Virus record (IMG/VR): IMGVR_UViG_2974557979_000001
Source: a virus
Lineage: Duplodnaviria > Heunggongvirae > Uroviricota > Caudoviricetes > Straboviridae
DNA: 64,000 nucleotides
Direction: 5' to 3' (one strand)
In this document: positions 3,850 through 42,428 of the stretch, piece by piece
Numbering within the stretch: position 1 is the stretch's first letter
How the letters are laid out: each line of letters begins with the position of its first letter
Made by a program: the position numbers and the translations under genes
The notes under the pieces: model-generated
What the model was told of the DNA's origin: nothing
Seen by the model: the letters and a program-made list of their open reading frames with translations, nothing else
Databases searched by the model: none

Positions 3850-4272
3850 ATGAAAAATTTACAAAAACTGTTTGAAATGTCTCCGGCAATTAGAAAAATC
3901 ATCGGAGAAAATAGCAATCCAACGAATCGCAATAAAAAATTGATGGAACTTTTTGTAAAAGAGTTCGATGATTTTGATTCTGAACTTCATAAAGCGCTTG
4001 AGGCATATTCTAAACAAGGGTTCTTTGCATCGCCGCAAGTAAATAGCAAGAAAGAGTATAGCGAACGATTCTTTGATTGGGAGATTGTCAATCTCGTTCG
4101 TAGAACAAATATATCTCCTAGCAATCACCAATTGATTTCTCTTGATACTTCGGTATTCTTTATCCAGTATCTTATCAGCGGTGGTTTCAAAAATCCTGAA
4201 ATTCCGTTTACAAATGAAGCGGTTAGCAGTGAATTTGATGAATCATTTGTATACATCAACACAAACAAATAA
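3850..4272 (+). CDS. hypothetical protein
   Basis: ORF; followed by the terminator hairpin GGCTATCTTCGGATAGCC. Confidence 0.5.
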   Translation: MKNLQKLFEMSPAIRKIIGENSNPTNRNKKLMELFVKEFDDFDSELHKALEAYSKQGFFASPQVNSKKEYSERFFDWEIVNLVRRTNISPSNHQLISLDTSVFFIQYLISGGFKNPEIPFTNEAVSSEFDESFVYINTNK

Positions 4273-4307
4273 TCAAATGGCTATCTTCGGATAGCCTTAT
4301 TTTTGGG

Positions 4308-4880
4308 GTGTCTATGCGCTTTTTAAAGTATGCAAGTTGGATCGTACTCGTCCCTCTTGACATTATTACTGGAGTATTAGCAATTCTGTTTGCCCCGTTT
4401 GTTGTACCGTTCTACAACGAGAAAACAGGGCATCTTCCTAAAGGCTTCCGGTGGATGGAAACCTTCGATAACCCTATTGATGGTGATGGTGGACATATCC
4501 GCCGTTGGGCGTCTATACGCTATCATCTGGGGGGTTTTGGGGTATACATGCAGCGTGTTGGCTGGTTGTGGAGAAACAAGGCTTATAACTTCGCATATCA
4601 CGTTTTAGGACGTGAAGCGACAAGCAAATTCAACTGGAAAGGCAACCCAAAAACAGAAGGTGGGCCAAACCCCGTAAATCATGGATATCTGCTCATGTGG
4701 AATGAATCAGCATGGGGGTTGTATGTCTATAAACCGTGGCTACGGATCCACAAGGTGCAATTCTGTTTGCGCGTTTATGCTGGATGGAAGCTGAAACAAG
4801 AAGTTAGCGACCCTGTTAACCTGGATCGCGCAATGCTGGCGTTTCATTTCAATCCATTCAGGTATTATGTAATCAAGTAA
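4308..4880 (+). CDS. hypothetical membrane protein
   Basis: N-terminal hydrophobic segment [25 protein letters not shown]. Confidence 0.5.
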
Positions 4881-6641: not shown

Positions 6642-7082
6642 ATGGACATTGGTTCGGGTAGTCAGTACCCATCATGCGCGTTAAGCAACTTCGCTCCGCA
6701 TCCGTTTACGTTTGACGGGGTAGAATGTGCATCAATGGAGGGCTTTTTGCAAAGCCTGAAATTTAGCAACCCAGATATGCAAGCCCATGTATGTACTCTG
6801 GTAGGCAAGGCCGCAAAGTTCAAAGGCAAAAAGAAAAAATGGTGGACTAACCAGACCTTATACTGGAAAGGTATCCCTATTCATCGTTCCTCTGAGGCGT
6901 ATCAAATCCTGATTGAAAACGCATATAATGCGTTATTCCTTAATGAAGGGTTTCGCCGTGCGCTGGCAGCAACCGGAAAAAGTACCTTGACACATTCAAT
7001 GGGAAAGAATAAAATAAATGAAACTGTACTGACTGAAAGAGAGTTTGTACGCAACTTAACCCGATTGAGAGATCTGTTATGA
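6642..7082 (+). CDS. NADAR (YbiA-like) domain protein, candidate ADP-ribose N-glycosidase
   Basis: LSNFAPHPFTFDGVECASMEGFLQSLKF matches the NADAR/DUF1768 N-terminal signature (SNF...F..DG....ScEhYFQAQKF). Confidence 0.72.
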   Translation: MDIGSGSQYPSCALSNFAPHPFTFDGVECASMEGFLQSLKFSNPDMQAHVCTLVGKAAKFKGKKKKWWTNQTLYWKGIPIHRSSEAYQILIENAYNALFLNEGFRRALAATGKSTLTHSMGKNKINETVLTEREFVRNLTRLRDLL

Positions 7083-30284: not shown

Positions 30285-31358
30285 TCAAGCAACCCCCGTA
30301 AAGGCGTTTACTATCTGGAAATGATCATCAAAGAATTCCCCTTGTCGTTGCACGACCTCATGCATAGGTAGCCAGAACGCGTCTGCTGCATCATCAGCAC
30401 CGCCCATGATACGAGGCAATGAACCATCGTTATTAGGTTCGAGCTTGATATATTGTGCTACAGTCGGTTTTGAGAAGTACACCGAACGTTTCGGATGATC
30501 GAACAGCATCGAATTACGGATAGAACCACGAATAACCTTTTCTGGTACTTTAATTCGTACTTCTTCCAGCAATTCACGGATCGCACAATCAAGGAACGTT
30601 TCGTTACCGTTTTTGTGTCCACCCGGAAGCGCTAACGCATCTTTACCAGGCGCAAACTTACGACGGATTACTAACACGTGGTTATTACATACGACCACTG
30701 AGTCAGCCGTGCAACAGTTCAGAGAATCCGGATACGGATATTTTTTGAACTTGTCAATCTCTCGTTGCCAGTGTGCATCTTCATGGGACAAACGCTGGAA
30801 TTCTTTTGTTTGTGTCCATTCATCGATAAAGGAAACCGTAGTGCTAGGCGCATATTTTAACAAATCTTCGTCCCAGCCTTCATGATGTTCCCAGATAATT
30901 TTGCGTAAATTGGTCGAGGACAGATCCTGATCTCCAACCTTCACAGGTTCAACCGGAATATGATTCCATCCGAATGCTTTAAGCCAGTAAGAATCTTTGT
31001 CTTTTTCATACCCGACGATCGCAATTCGATCATTTCGAGTTTCATCGATTGCCATACGAACACGGGATTTCCATTTTTCCTCGTTATAGAGGTAATCCGG
31101 AATGTACGCGAATTTGATTCTGGCTGCATCTTCAACATCAAGTTTGCAGATAGACCAGCGAGTGATCATTGCTTGACGCTGTTTAGCGGTCAATGGGTTT
31201 AATGTGTTCGGATATGCATAAGCAGAACCGATCAGAATGTAAACCGTATTAGCAACAGCAAGGGCTTCCCTTACCATTTTCTCATGACCATAGTGAAAAG
31301 GTTGAAAACGTCCAATTACTACAGCTTTATCATATTTGTGTTTCATAACGTGCTCCAC
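30285..31358 (-). CDS. natV: bifunctional NMN adenylyltransferase / Nudix ADP-ribose pyrophosphatase (NatV/NadM-Nudix-like)
   Basis: N-terminal GRFQPFHYGH (NadM-type NMNAT motif); C-terminal Nudix box GGHKNGNETFLDCAIRELLEEV. Confidence 0.85.
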   Translation of the reverse strand: MEHVMKHKYDKAVVIGRFQPFHYGHEKMVREALAVANTVYILIGSAYAYPNTLNPLTAKQRQAMITRWSICKLDVEDAARIKFAYIPDYLYNEEKWKSRVRMAIDETRNDRIAIVGYEKDKDSYWLKAFGWNHIPVEPVKVGDQDLSSTNLRKIIWEHHEGWDEDLLKYAPSTTVSFIDEWTQTKEFQRLSHEDAHWQREIDKFKKYPYPDSLNCCTADSVVVCNNHVLVIRRKFAPGKDALALPGGHKNGNETFLDCAIRELLEEVRIKVPEKVIRGSIRNSMLFDHPKRSVYFSKPTVAQYIKLEPNNDGSLPRIMGGADDAADAFWLPMHEVVQRQGEFFDDHFQIVNAFTGVA

Positions 31359-33184: not shown

Positions 33185-33290
33185 AACAATTACTCTTTTA
33201 CTCATAGACCCACTATAGGTCTACTCCTGTATATATTTATAGCAAAAACGAGGCCGAAGCCTCGTTATAATATTTTTGCTGTAAAGTCAA

Positions 33291-33700: not shown

Positions 33701-34309
33701 TTATGCTTCCACTGTATCAGGGTTGTTCTTTAGTTGCAAGTAATGTTTTCGACAAAGTGAAACATATTTGTCTTCGGCCCCGATCTCAATCTGGTCGCCG
33801 TTAGCAACAAATTTGCCATTTGCATCAATACGGGCAACGGTAGTTGCTTTCTTTCCACAATGACAAACCCCTCGCAACTCCCTGATCTCATCAGCCAGCG
33901 CCAGCAACATATAAGAACCTTCGAACAAGTTCAACTGAAAATCGGTTCTTAGTCCATAAGTCATTACGGGTATATCTAATTCGTCAACAACCCGACACAG
34001 ATCCATGACATTTTTCCTGGAAAGGAATTGCGCTTCATCCACAAACACGCAAGAAACCAGATTCGGGCTGTCTCTATAAAAATGATTGTTGTGAACATCA
34101 TAATACAAGTCCATATCAGGCGTGATCATAGTGCATGTTGCTTCCAACCCAATGCGCGAAGAGATACTCTGTTTACCTTCTCGCGTATCAATTGCTGGTT
34201 TGTACATCAGGATCCGCATACCGCGTTCCTGGTAGTTGTATGCATCAGTGAGTAAACGAGCACTCTTGCCAGCATTCATTGATGCATAATGAAAATACAG
34301 TTTAGCCAT
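33701..34309 (-). CDS. tk: thymidine kinase
   Basis: YASMNAGKSARLL P-loop, VFVDEAQFL, YGLRTDF, CHCGKKAT zinc motif; collinear with T4 Tk. Confidence 0.92.
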   Translation of the reverse strand: MAKLYFHYASMNAGKSARLLTDAYNYQERGMRILMYKPAIDTREGKQSISSRIGLEATCTMITPDMDLYYDVHNNHFYRDSPNLVSCVFVDEAQFLSRKNVMDLCRVVDELDIPVMTYGLRTDFQLNLFEGSYMLLALADEIRELRGVCHCGKKATTVARIDANGKFVANGDQIEIGAEDKYVSLCRKHYLQLKNNPDTVEA

Positions 34310-34583
34310 TTATCCTCTCAACAAAATCTGGGGTATTCTGGAATTTTCCTTCCCCTTCATGGTTTTTGCATGTTTTGTTTGAACAGTAGATCCACCAATC
34401 CCACTCATCATAAGGGGGTTTGGTAATGTTCATTACGCAAATTAAAGGGAAATGACAATCCCGACAACGAACTTTTTCTATAATGTGTGCGTTAGCCAAT
34501 TGAAAACCATCCTTTACCCATGAGTTTTTCATTATGTCGCGCAAGATACTCTTTGATTTCTGGCATCCGGATCGCAGTGTCAT
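34302..34583 (-). CDS. hypothetical Cys-rich protein
   Basis: ORF; overlaps 34492..34719 in another frame, so one of the two may be spurious. Confidence 0.3.
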   Translation of the reverse strand: MTLRSGCQKSKSILRDIMKNSWVKDGFQLANAHIIEKVRCRDCHFPLICVMNITKPPYDEWDWWIYCSNKTCKNHEGEGKFQNTPDFVERING

Positions 34584-34719
34584 ATTCTTCTTTCGTCATG
34601 GTATGATTTGCGCAACCCATACACCCGCACACCTGCGCGTTACACCAACGGAGTGTTCCATATGTCGCAATCACCTTCATTGCTTTAGCTTTGATTTTGT
34701 CAGTCATGATTATAACCAC
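34492..34719 (-). CDS. hypothetical Cys-rich protein
   Basis: CNAQVCGCMGCANH cluster. Confidence 0.4.
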   Translation of the reverse strand: MVIIMTDKIKAKAMKVIATYGTLRWCNAQVCGCMGCANHTMTKEEYDTAIRMPEIKEYLARHNEKLMGKGWFSIG

Positions 34720-34987
34720 TCATTTCGTTATCTTGTGCTTGATGTATATCAAGATACCACATATTGATTTTACTTTTCAGTTCGTCCATTTCCTTACTCA
34801 GACAATTGTCAACGATACATAGAACATTAACAGTTTCTTTACGCTGCATAATGTTGATGTTATTCGCTTTCATCGCTTGCGCCAATGCATTACAGGTTTT
34901 AACCAGTGCGGCGCGTTGTCCTTTGATTACGGCGATCCGCTTGTTTGCTTTCTTAATCTCCCGACCTGCTTTGATAGGATCCATCAT
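34700..34987 (-). CDS. hypothetical protein
   Basis: ORF. Confidence 0.4.
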   Translation of the reverse strand: MMDPIKAGREIKKANKRIAVIKGQRAALVKTCNALAQAMKANNINIMQRKETVNVLCIVDNCLSKEMDELKSKINMWYLDIHQAQDNEMSGYNHD

Positions 34988-34989
34988 GA

Positions 34990-35463
34990 TTAATTCGCCT
35001 TACGAGGATCGAAATGAACGACAATGATCGGGTAATCACCAGTCACCTCATTAATAATGCGCTTAATGAGTTCCCAGTCGCCCCCAGCGAGGCCAGCACC
35101 GATTAAAGGTGTGATGATAGGCTTTCCAGTCTTAACGGCGTCAGCAAGCCCTACAGCCTGTTTAAAAGCATTGCCGATTGCGTCATAATCGACACGCGGC
35201 CCAGGTGTCCAGAAATCATATTGAGTATATGCATTGAAAACAATGTTGCCTTTTTCGCCAATGTAAACAGAACAAGTTCCGAGCTTATCACGGGAACCTT
35301 TTAACGTATTGGCATCAACTTGAAATGCACCAGGAATACGATCGCGGATTTCGCGAGCAATACCAGCGCCCATATTGCAATAGCAGTTGCATCCGTGGAT
35401 CAAATGGCCTTCACCGTTCAGATACATATTGACAGCATTACCTTTCACTTCTTTAATGATCAT
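34990..35463 (-). CDS. TARG1/DarG-like macrodomain protein (ADP-ribose hydrolase candidate)
   Basis: HGCNCYCNMGAGIA and PLIGAGLAGGDWELIKRIINEV match human TARG1 (HCISEDCRMGAGIA ... [22 protein letters not shown]); start set at MIIKEV. Confidence 0.72.
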   Translation of the reverse strand: MIIKEVKGNAVNMYLNGEGHLIHGCNCYCNMGAGIAREIRDRIPGAFQVDANTLKGSRDKLGTCSVYIGEKGNIVFNAYTQYDFWTPGPRVDYDAIGNAFKQAVGLADAVKTGKPIITPLIGAGLAGGDWELIKRIINEVTGDYPIIVVHFDPRKAN

Positions 35464-35547
35464 TTTTATTTTTCCGATATAGTAGGGCCACAACAAGGCC
35501 CATCAAAATCACAAGGATCCACAATACAGTGAATTGAACCCCTACGC

Positions 35548-35736
35548 TCATTTTCTCGCTTTCCGTTCACGGCGGCGATCTTCTTGATGACACATATATA
35601 AAACACCACCAAAAATTATAAAACCGATAACAACGCCTATAAAGTATCCAGCACTAAACATAGTCATCATCCCCGCAATAGTAACAAGGCCCAGTGCTCT
35701 CATGCTTACCAGCATTGTACGCCAAGAACACCACAA
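35548..35736 (-). CDS. small membrane protein
   Basis: Two hydrophobic segments and a basic C-terminus. Confidence 0.35.
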   Translation of the reverse strand: MWCSWRTMLVSMRALGLVTIAGMMTMFSAGYFIGVVIGFIIFGGVLYMCHQEDRRRERKARK

Positions 35737-35769
35737 CCGCCGCCATAATAATAAAAATCCAGATAGCCA

Positions 35770-36093
35770 TTAGTAAAGTCCTATGCCAGCATTGAATTCG
35801 TCAACCAAATAAGTACGGAACTTTTCGCACCGTTCCTTATTTGGCGCTTGTTTGCATAGATTCATCATTGGTTCAGACTGCAAAAACTCTTTTTGTTTCA
35901 GCAACTTACCGCGTTTATACAGGTGAGCATTTTCCTCTCCCCACATATAAGCAACATCTAACTGTTCTGCGATCACTTGCTTACATACTGCGACATCTTT
36001 GATATCACGATTGTTGCATAACTCATCCAGGCGAGCATCACCCGCGTGAGCAAATCCAGCAACCAGAGTTAAAAGCAGTGCTAACTTTTTCAT
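35770..36093 (-). CDS. secreted small protein
   Basis: Signal peptide MKKLALLLTLVAGFAHA. Confidence 0.45.
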   Translation of the reverse strand: MKKLALLLTLVAGFAHAGDARLDELCNNRDIKDVAVCKQVIAEQLDVAYMWGEENAHLYKRGKLLKQKEFLQSEPMMNLCKQAPNKERCEKFRTYLVDEFNAGIGLY

Positions 36094-40696: not shown

Positions 40697-41154
40697 TACA
40701 TACCCAGCGAAATTACGTGAATATATGCTAATGGATGTTTCTTTTGTACACAATGCATGAGTGTATTATACACAATGTCCATGCGTTCATTGCGCGTAAG
40801 ATCACACTCATCAAAAATAAGGTTTATTGCCTGGTGCTCTATTCGACGTCCACGGAAATGATTAAGAATTGCCCCTTTACTGGTCAATACATCACATCCG
40901 GTAGCACCATTTAGCTGTTTGGCGTCTTGTGCTGCATTTAACGTATGCGCTACGTAAATGTTAAGGGAACTATGGGAACGTTTCATAAAATCAAACGCGC
41001 CTTTAGTCTTTTGCGTTTCTCTGCCCAGATCCAGCCTGGTTTCGAATACCATAAAATCGTTAGGGCCGTAATTATGCGTTGGTTCTTCCAACTCTCGCAT
41101 AAGATGCATCTTACGACATTCTTCAATTGTCTTTACATAAAATTCACTATTCAT
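40696..41154 (-). CDS. hypothetical protein
   Basis: ORF. Confidence 0.45.
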   Translation of the reverse strand: MNSEFYVKTIEECRKMHLMRELEEPTHNYGPNDFMVFETRLDLGRETQKTKGAFDFMKRSHSSLNIYVAHTLNAAQDAKQLNGATGCDVLTSKGAILNHFRGRRIEHQAINLIFDECDLTRNERMDIVYNTLMHCVQKKHPLAYIHVISLGM

Positions 41155-41185
41155 GTTTTACCTTTAAGGGGCCAAAGCCCCTTTG

Positions 41186-41581
41186 TTACGCTAATTCCAC
41201 ATGCGGGGCATCAATGAATTTTGTTTCGATCGGAAGGTTCGGATCATTTTTCCAGTTGATACCAAAACGCAGTTTAACACCCAGTTCATCACCTGCTTGT
41301 TTAACAGCATTCAGGACAGGCAACCACACTTTAGGGTTTGTTTGCCAGCCTTGAGGCAACACGCTAGGATACAGATCCACAGCATCACCCGTGATGTGTT
41401 TTGAGTTCATTGTTTGAGATACACCCTTACGGACGTTCTCGCGCTGTTGTTCTACAGTACGCAGACCTTCACGTACACCAAAATCAACAGGAGACAGTTG
41501 CAGAGCGCGTTCTACAACTTTCACCAGTTGAGGTTTAACACCTTTAAGGTTGTTAAGGCTTTTTTGACTGAATTTAAACAT
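41186..41581 (-). CDS. peptidase M15 family (L-alanyl-D-glutamate peptidase-like), candidate endolysin
   Basis: Zn-ligand pattern SQT...SKHITGDAVDL...DAPHVEL typical of M15/VanY-like phage endolysins. Confidence 0.7.
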   Translation of the reverse strand: MFKFSQKSLNNLKGVKPQLVKVVERALQLSPVDFGVREGLRTVEQQRENVRKGVSQTMNSKHITGDAVDLYPSVLPQGWQTNPKVWLPVLNAVKQAGDELGVKLRFGINWKNDPNLPIETKFIDAPHVELA

Positions 41582-41648
41582 AAATCACCTCTTGTAAAAA
41601 TACCCTGTTTGGGTACACAGGGTATTTATGGTTTAAGAGGTTCGATAA

Positions 41649-42050
41649 TTAATAATCGTAAAGATCACCGAAGCATTCTTCAAATTCACGTTTACGTTTC
41701 ATCTGTTCTTCTTTTCGCTCTTTCATATCAGGAGGAAGACGGTCTTCATTGACTTCATCAATGTAAGCCTGTGCATCCTCTTTGGTCAGGAAGAAAGCAT
41801 GGAAGTTATATCCGTTGCGCCCATTCATACTACGGTCTTCAAGAGAGAACTCTGTGTGACAGTCCCAGTCTTTGTACATGGTGATGCATTTAGCAAACAG
41901 CCCGATACCGCGATGCATATACGGGAATCCAGTAACAATCATCTTGCTACCCATTTCAGCCTTTTCGCCATTCACACAAAATACTTCATACATGATCGCG
42001 CCTGGTTTAACATCTTTCTTAACAGCACGTTTTTCAAAAGCACTTTTCAT
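41649..42050 (-). CDS. hypothetical protein
   Basis: ORF. Confidence 0.45.
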   Translation of the reverse strand: MKSAFEKRAVKKDVKPGAIMYEVFCVNGEKAEMGSKMIVTGFPYMHRGIGLFAKCITMYKDWDCHTEFSLEDRSMNGRNGYNFHAFFLTKEDAQAYIDEVNEDRLPPDMKERKEEQMKRKREFEECFGDLYDY

Positions 42051-42104
42051 AATATATTCCTCTCAATTGGTGTAACTACAGACTACTGGTTTATTTTCTG
42101 GATG

Positions 42105-42428
42105 TCAACAAGGTTTATCGTTTTTTGACGGAAAAGTTAGAGTGAACAAACGATCGTGAAGGTTGTCTATCCGTTCACAAGCCTGTTTCAGTATGGTTTT
42201 ATCACCATCATTTGTTGTTTCAATGCATCCAAGTTCATCGGCGTCAATGTTCACTACATCGCTCATCAATGAAGCAAACACGTTAGCATCAGGATGTAAC
42301 AGTTCTTCTATTTCGGCCTTCATGCCGTCGTGTTCAGAAAGGATATCAATAATATCGCGGGTTAAATCTCCCTGGTACGGGAACCCTGTTTCTAAATGAT
42401 TAATGATCCTTTGTGCTTTCGTAATCAT
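42105..42428 (-). CDS. hypothetical protein
   Basis: ORF. Confidence 0.4.
   Translation of the reverse strand: MITKAQRIINHLETGFPYQGDLTRDIIDILSEHDGMKAEIEELLHPDANVFASLMSDVVNIDADELGCIETTNDGDKTILKQACERIDNLHDRLFTLTFPSKNDKPC

Follow-up and report, generated by a model that had tools for sequence, protein, structure and literature searches.

The locus studied here raises the question of whether a small gene of a Klebsiella bacteriophage, labelled 'hypothetical protein' in its genome record and 'phosphatase' in some relatives, encodes a macrodomain enzyme and, if so, on which ADP-ribose conjugate it would act. The window, that is, the whole stretch of 64,000 nucleotides that was analysed, matches Klebsiella phage Matisse (Straboviridae, Slopekvirus) with 100% identity, and its positions are obtained by subtracting 46,702 from those of the Matisse record. 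The open reading frame singled out by the initial annotation proved to be a real gene. It is ATG-initiated on the minus strand, its coordinates match and both peptides quoted at that time are found in its translation:

34990-35463, minus strand: macrodomain gene CPT_Matisse140, encoding gp140, 157 amino acids plus stop (stop codon at 34990-34992), from the open reading frame list and its translation.

The start was assigned to the ATG at 35463 because the homologues share the MIIKE N-terminus, and an alternative TTG start at 35496 was discarded for the same reason. The gp140 protein scored 30.1 bits against the Pfam Macro profile, whose gathering score is 22, and it has the alpha/beta fold of macrodomains, which places it in the Macro superfamily (PF01661). 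In addition, it matched PHROG 335 with an E value of 7e-57, and its AF2 model had a pLDDT of 94. The family is broad, with 3638 homologous clusters in a large protein collection, and 2935 of 50,697 phage records contain a homologue. Within the Matisse genome, tblastn confirmed gp140 as the sole homologue.

The gp140 protein belongs to the ALC1-like (TARG1/DarG/SCO6735) structural class, and its closest structural and profile relatives (TARG1, DarG, SCO6735/BT1257 and Poa1p) are members of it. These relatives bear out the TARG1/DarG-type class given by the initial annotation. The alignment with TARG1 invoked there holds for the class, but the closest relatives with a solved structure are BT1257 and SCO6735, which gave the best PDB sequence and fold matches, and not TARG1. 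The best PADLOC match was DarG (E 2.5e-7, DarG positions 16-148 of 329), with ThsA as a weak one (0.031), and DarG was also the sole NCBIfam match, at model positions 15-151 of 338 and with 22.8 bits against a cut-off of 250 bits. The DarG2 proteins of Thermus aquaticus and Mycobacterium tuberculosis are 22–24% identical to gp140 and have the catalytic K80 where gp140 has a Gln; they carry a C-terminal DarT-binding domain and are encoded beside DarT, whereas gp140 lacks both. DarG proper was consequently discarded as an identity for this 157-residue protein, because of the missing C-terminal domain, the lack of a DarT neighbour and a score far under the equivalog cut-off. Human TARG1/OARD1 is 24% identical to gp140. 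SCO6735 and BT1257 (27–28%, with 28% for SCO6735) share with it the Gln at the catalytic position, the equivalents of Asn27 and His24 and the GxGLAGG phosphate loop, and are likewise orphan genes with no DarT alongside. In contrast, the family of gp140 has the TARG1-like MGAGIA where SCO6735 and BT1257 have GGWGKGF.

The active site was examined in an alignment of 43 sequences of the family, from which the invariance of the residues was read. The reference sequence of TARG1 was checked against PDB, as were those of the M. tuberculosis and T. aquaticus DarG proteins (against 5m3i and 5m31), and the SCO6735 and BT1257 sequences were taken from HMMER alignments. The following segments were located within the gene:

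35386-35397, minus strand: codons H23-G24-C25-N26, invariant in the 43-sequence alignment.
35359-35373, minus strand: codons M31-G32-A33-G34-I35, first ADP-ribose-binding loop, TARG1-like MGAGIA, from the alignments.
35278-35316, minus strand: codons D50...T53..G56...K60-L61-G62, family-specific motif, invariant in the family.
35221-35235, minus strand: codons N77-A-Y-T-Q81, with Q81 at 35221-35223, from hhalign, BLASTP and MAFFT.
35074-35109, minus strand: codons P119-LIGAGLAGGD-W130, phosphate-binding loop, from the alignments.

Residue Q81, invariant in the family, occupies the catalytic position of TARG1 Lys84, DarG Lys80 and SCO6735 Gln85, and A126 that of TARG1 Asp125, which resolves the lysyl-ADP-ribose intermediate. 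As both replacements appeared in three independent alignments (hhalign, BLASTP and MAFFT), the covalent lysyl-ADP-ribose mechanism cannot apply, and the lysine mechanism of TARG1 and DarG was rejected for gp140. The initial annotation had held that the loss of the TARG1 Lys and Asp would speak against its proposal. Both are missing, but that expectation is out of date, because SCO6735, without either of them, is the most active thymidine-ADP-ribose hydrolase of the three compared and T4 Tk.4 also has a Gln. In fact, on DarT-modified DNA SCO6735 outpaces both DarG and TARG1 in clearing thymidine-ADP-ribose, has no action on guanosine-ADP-ribose and rescues Escherichia coli from DarT (PMC9411070).

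The whole set of SCO6735-type residues of gp140 (Q81, N26, H23, G122 and G124) is invariant in the family. In the MAFFT alignment N26 shares its column with SCO6735 Asn27 and DarG Asn22, and H23 with SCO6735 His24, while G122 and G124 match SCO6735 G126 and G128. The SCO6735 mutant Q85A is inactive, N27S is nearly so and G128E has a lowered activity (PMC9411070); DarG N22A is strongly impaired, Asn22 helping to position the ADP-ribose and the substrate. On the other hand, the DNA-positioning lysines of SCO6735, K34 and K89, are Ala33 and Trp85 in gp140, which counts against a thymidine-ADP-ribose substrate; K34E nearly abolishes the action of SCO6735 on DNA (PMC9411070), and the residue aligned with A33 in DarG is Lys29. 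The D50/T53/G56/K60 motif is kept without change throughout the family, T4 Tk.4 and the Adpp protein of Vibrio phage Gary among its members, and is missing from SCO6735, BT1257, TARG1 and DarG. This private motif and the low identity to SCO6735 (28%) also weigh against a thymidine-ADP-ribose substrate. The 'mobile loop' of SCO6735 and BT1257 is about five residues longer than that of TARG1 and DarG; gp140 has an intermediate length, with 11 residues between the catalytic-position Gln or Lys and the conserved Tyr, against 13–14 in SCO6735/BT1257 and 8 in TARG1.

Bacterial homologues 45–50% identical to gp140 were also found, and the two loci looked up were both orphan, without DarT. One of them, from Planctomycetes bacterium TBK1r (CP036432.1, 5735053-5745511), holds a 45%-identical homologue near a microbial PARG and two RlaP nucleotidyltransferases, together with an EF-Tu-like GTPase, a HIT-DEAD helicase and an ARPP-1/ARPP-2 protein, and may represent a conflict island concerned with ADP-ribose or with RNA repair. 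The other homologue lies among housekeeping genes, and the bacterial context was set aside as uninformative about function.

The closest experimental lead comes from bacteriophage T4. When T4 was screened by transposon sequencing on a host with DarTG2, tk.4 came out as the single significant hit, a clean T4 Δtk.4 mutant was DarTG2-sensitive, and Tk.4, which is a macrodomain, was named AdfM, for anti-DarT factor Macrodomain; this role rests on the knockout phenotype given in a preprint, for T4 only (bioRxiv 10.1101/2025.11.20.689424). The gp140 protein is homologous to Tk.4 from end to end, with 32% identity over 153 of 157 residues (E 1e-27). Both proteins are of similar length (155 residues in T4 and 157 in Matisse), come from the tk-vs locus and share the Gln at the catalytic position, the Asn, the GxG residues and the family signature. 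They differ in that the family-consensus IGAGLAGGDW of gp140 is IGAGIGKGNW in Tk.4, where the loop following the Gln is also shorter, and gp140 is nearer to the bacterial orphan macrodomains (45–50%) than to Tk.4 (32%).

The genetic context of gp140 is defined by the following elements:

33701-34309, minus strand: thymidine kinase gene tk, downstream synteny anchor, from the open reading frame list and the Matisse annotation.
35770-36093, minus strand: homologue of vs (valyl-tRNA synthetase modifier), upstream synteny anchor, from the Matisse annotation.
35453-35551, minus strand: CPT_Matisse141, small upstream open reading frame whose end overlaps the start of the macrodomain gene by 11 nt, from the Matisse annotation with converted coordinates.
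33247-33266, no strand (bidirectional): hairpin terminator with an 8-bp stem, 5 GC pairs and a T-run after it, annotated in Matisse.

In Matisse the order is vs, three small open reading frames, the macrodomain gene, two or three small open reading frames (the annotations differ) and tk. The T4 order is vs, tk.4, tk.3/2/1 and tk, with tk.4 directly downstream of vs, and the macrodomain gene adjoins vs in many T4-like phages and genera. Taken together, the end-to-end homology, the placement between tk and vs and the common Gln, Asn and GxG residues make gp140 the positional and sequence counterpart of Tk.4/AdfM. The overlap of 11 nt with CPT_Matisse141 suggests co-transcription and possibly coupled translation, and the hairpin at 33247-33266 is likely the end of a minus-strand unit comprising vs, the macrodomain gene and tk. 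No promoter is claimed for this unit, as a scan gave 14 promoter-like matches against 12.2 expected from shuffles, that is, no excess; examples of such chance-level matches on the minus strand are those at 37299-37271 and 35643-35615. The neighbours of gp140 are small phage open reading frames, tk and vs, with no adjacent DarT (DUF4433) toxin gene, and no DarT-annotated gene appeared in the tables of the Matisse record outside 50-77 kb and 87-110 kb of that record. Between vs and the macrodomain gene (35453-35770, minus strand) three very small open reading frames of 32–38 residues are annotated (CPT_Matisse141-143), and a longer frame of 62 residues at 35548-35736 on the same strand would encode a membrane-like, hydrophobic peptide whose tail is basic.

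A protein of 189 residues (P0002), coming from a contig of Slopekvirus size (175,668 bp), is an in-frame fusion of residues 1-126 of the macrodomain, ending in PLIGAGLA, to the C-terminus of thymidine kinase (DEIRELRGVCHCGKK...), and corresponds to about positions 33880-35463 of the window. Read from its sequence, this fusion implies a natural deletion of ~1.2 kb in a close relative, which would have removed the C-terminus of the macrodomain, the small open reading frames between its gene and tk and most of tk. As at least this one contig carries the fusion, the macrodomain gene can be done without in some circumstances, which fits a counter-defence gene that is of use only in certain settings.

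As regards the toxin concerned, the initial annotation had labelled gp140 as anti-DarT1. This should read anti-DarT2, because macrodomains reverse the thymidine modification made by DarT2, whereas the guanosine modification made by DarT1 is the target of NADAR proteins (PMC11825919). An anti-DarT role is the best-supported reading of the gene because gp140 is a syntenic, full-length homologue of the DarTG2-countering Tk.4. Judging from the residues and from the analogy with T4, we consider it rather probable that gp140, the Slopekvirus counterpart of Tk.4/AdfM, is a stand-alone, catalytically competent macrodomain and reverses the thymidine ADP-ribosylation due to DarT2 by a chemistry like that of SCO6735. 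The general function that had been proposed, a DNA ADP-ribose hydrolase acting as a countermeasure to DarTG, is in this way probably right, given the homology and synteny with Tk.4, but the choice of substrate between this and that of Adpp is not settled by sequence.

The gp140 protein would act as follows. Its gene probably belongs to a block, lying between vs and tk, that is expressed early and is not essential. Once DarTG2 is triggered, the host DarT2 would ADP-ribosylate thymidine at N3, via C1'', in single-stranded phage DNA; gp140 would then bind the thymidine-attached ADP-ribose and hydrolyse the bond, giving free ADP-ribose and replicable DNA. It would thus be an orphan antitoxin, acting on the product of DarT2 rather than on the toxin. 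The chemistry would be SCO6735-like and not TARG1-like, with Asn26 holding Gln81 and Gln81 positioning the distal ribose, and cleavage would be carried out by water, without a covalent lysyl-ADP-ribose intermediate. The host species, Klebsiella pneumoniae, is reported to contain an operon of DarT with a macrodomain (PMC5179494).

The invariance of these residues also bears on whether gp140 is an enzyme at all. A non-catalytic protein, binding or blocking DarT2 or sequestering an ADP-ribose ligand, has a precedent in the dead SCO6735 Q85A mutant, which still inhibits DarT in vitro and does so more than DarG or TARG1 mutants (PMC9411070), and other anti-DarT factors, such as AdfB of ICP1, work by binding. 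However, the residues needed for catalysis in the nearest characterised enzyme are all invariant across the family homologues, which argues for selection for enzymatic function, and the 157 residues of gp140 do not include the C-terminal DarT-binding domain of DarG. We therefore regard this mode of action as very improbable. AdfB of ICP1 was rejected as a relative of gp140, as it is a 77-residue mimic of the DarG C-terminus and not a macrodomain.

A second phage macrodomain has also been given the name AdfM. The macrodomain protein gp104 of the chimallivirus PhiKZ resembles DarG2 and uses a catalytic Lys, its relevant residues being N23 and K78 (PMC13309987), and K78 stands where gp140 has its Gln. 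With the T. aquaticus DarG macrodomain as query, tblastn recovered 291 phage records, mostly of jumbo phages, and none of the 25 rows sampled was T4-like. The name AdfM, which was given independently, spans two macrodomain lineages, the Gln-type of T4 Tk.4 and the Lys-type of PhiKZ gp104.

The main difficulty in assigning a substrate to gp140 is that its family includes Adpp, which is absent from the initial annotation, so that an assignment made from sequence is not secure. Adpp (gp137 of Vibrio phage Gary) is the macrodomain of a NARP1 operon and removes the phosphate from the ADPR-1''-phosphate that the aRES defence produces, which lets NARP1 rebuild NAD+ (bioRxiv 10.64898/2026.01.28.702374). 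It is 37% identical to gp140 (E 9e-28) and 35% to T4 Tk.4, with all the conserved residues in common, and, like Tk.4, it is a phage counter-defence macrodomain. One protein family, Tk.4/Adpp, has accordingly two experimentally assigned roles, and sequence cannot tell the two substrates apart because gp140 is equally similar to this proven ADPR-1''-phosphate phosphatase. Under this alternative gp140 would, as its main or as a second activity, be an Adpp-type phosphatase making ADP-ribose from the product of a RES-domain NADase such as aRES, and would help the phage against NAD+ depletion or a toxic metabolite.

Several observations stand against this role in Matisse. The complete Matisse genome was assembled from the record and searched by tblastn, the queries being the Adps and Namat proteins of three phages. 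No Adps was found in its 176 kb with the three Adps queries, the best E value being about 1 over 17 residues. Whereas Adpp lies in an Adps-Adpp-Namat operon in Gary, the gp140 gene adjoins no NAD gene and sits in the tk-vs block as tk.4 does in T4. Some phage homologues are found in or beside operons annotated as 'ribose-phosphate pyrophosphokinase' plus 'nicotinamide phosphoribosyl transferase', which are NARP1 operons. The loci that matter for this comparison are these:

30285-31346, minus strand: gp132, fusion of a cytidylyltransferase-like (NMNAT) domain and a NUDIX domain.
150964-152397 of the Matisse record, outside the window (40965-42398 of retrieved locus L009): gp248, Nampt, sole gene of the NAPRTase family.
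4001-4480 of retrieved locus L004: NARP1-linked homologue of Vibrio phage P018-4.
2998-3474 of retrieved locus L007: NARP1-linked homologue of Vibrio phage Gary.
4001-4474 of retrieved locus L005: NARP1-linked homologue of Acinetobacter phage Aci05.

Pfam identifies gp248 as a Nampt, with an NAMPT_N score of 79 bits where the Gary Namat reaches 21.6, and the gp248 gene lies about 70 kb from that of the macrodomain. Together, gp132 and gp248 look like a NARP2-type pair for NAD+ resynthesis, which needs no ADPR. As the genome has no Adps and its NAD genes are of the NARP2 type, with Nampt as the single NAPRTase-family gene, the NARP1-AP pathway cannot operate in Matisse and this role was rejected for gp140.

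Residue 33 and the phylogeny were compared as well. Adpp of Gary has Gln25, Arg34 and Gly81 where gp140 has Gly24, Ala33 and Thr80. The position-33 column holds Ala in Matisse and in most bacterial copies, Ser in T4 Tk.4 and Arg, Arg and Lys in the three NARP1-linked homologues; this column may mark specificity, as judged from very few sequences. When residues separating Tk.4-like from Adpp-like copies were sought, this suggestive difference was the only one, with too few sequences to rely on. In a neighbour-joining tree built from identity distances, whose support values are rough because they come from 50 bootstraps, the Tk.4/Adpp family formed one clade (94%) apart from SCO6735/BT1257, TARG1 and DarG. 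Within it the Matisse copy clustered with other T4-like phage copies (98%), in a sub-clade containing T4 Tk.4 and leaving Gary Adpp outside (86%), and the Aci05 copy grouped with bacterial sequences (100%) and not with Gary. Since the placement of gp140 is away from Adpp and its genome offers no NARP1 partner, an Adpp-type phosphatase activity seems to us unlikely, whether as the main or as a second function.

The position of the Aci05 copy indicates that the NARP1 linkage arose more than once, and for this reason the whole family may share the phosphatase activity, which gp140 could then have as a second one. It is conceivable, but we hold it tentatively, that the whole Tk.4/Adpp family represents one bifunctional 1''-ADP-ribose hydrolase, which would both strip ADP-ribose from thymidine and dephosphorylate ADPR-1''-phosphate; the D50/T53/G56/K60 motif, absent from SCO6735, could then be what allows such a dual use.

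It was also considered that gp140 might act on another ADP-ribose conjugate or signal, such as ADP-ribosylated RNA (CmdTAC-type), Glu/Asp-ADP-ribosylated protein, O-acyl-ADP-ribose or the 1''-linked cyclic ADPR isomers of Thoeris. The ADP-ribosyltransferases of T4-type phages modify arginine, and macrodomains are not known to reverse arginine ADP-ribosylation, which counts against such a role. The matches to the ThsA macro domain are weak and sub-threshold (Pfam E 8e-4, under the cut-off, and PADLOC E 0.03). The class is promiscuous, SCO6735 and TARG1 also removing Glu/Asp-linked ADP-ribose from proteins (PMC9411070), soluble ADP-ribose derivatives are, as Iyer et al. argue, the main targets of phage Macro domains (PMC9503650), and the planctomycete homologue lies among PARG, RlaP and ARPP genes. 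However, the sole defence-specific phenotype found for the T4 orthologue is that on DarTG2 (bioRxiv 10.1101/2025.11.20.689424), and we consider any of these other substrates improbable as the target of gp140.

The preferred reading, in which gp140 counters DarT2, also concerns a second gene of the window, which the initial annotation had described as a NADAR gene at 6642 forming a two-enzyme pair with the macrodomain:

6642-7082, plus strand: homologue of T4 gp30.3/AdfN (NADAR family), 146 amino acids, identified by Pfam Phage_30_3 (E 1.3e-55).

Its membership of the gp30.3/AdfN family was confirmed by the Pfam match; it has about 40–43% identity to the copies of T4-type phages and is present in 1508 phage records. 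DarT1 modifies guanosine, which NADAR proteins (DarG1 and phage AdfN) reverse, and DarT2 modifies thymidine, which macrodomains reverse (PMC11825919; PMC13309987); in T4, AdfN (gp30.3) counters DarTG1 (PMC11825919). For Matisse, the proposal that each of the two base classes has its own enzyme holds by homology and mirrors the genetics of T4, so gp140 and the AdfN homologue would cover the DarT2 thymidine-type and the DarT1 guanosine-type ADP-ribosylation.

Both the concept of phage macrodomains as anti-DarT2 factors and the orthologue T4 Tk.4/AdfM were already described in 2025-26. What the present analysis gives is a probable counter-defence function for a gene that more than 100 genomes of Klebsiella Slopekvirus phages, and about 2,900 phage records across the whole family, list as 'hypothetical protein' or 'phosphatase', which bears on the choice of therapeutic Klebsiella phages for hosts with DarTG2 or RES-type systems. 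Against DarT2, phages use macrodomains of two lineages. One is the DarG-like AdfM found in jumbo phages, which is of the Lys-type, and the other is the Tk.4 family, of the Gln-type; the latter also includes a proven ADPR-1''-phosphate phosphatase, which leaves either two specificities or one promiscuous enzyme. If the family were indeed bifunctional, AdfM and Adpp, names given independently in 2025-26, would be the same enzyme, and one phage gene would disarm two mechanistically unrelated defences, DarTG2 and RES-type NAD+ depletion.
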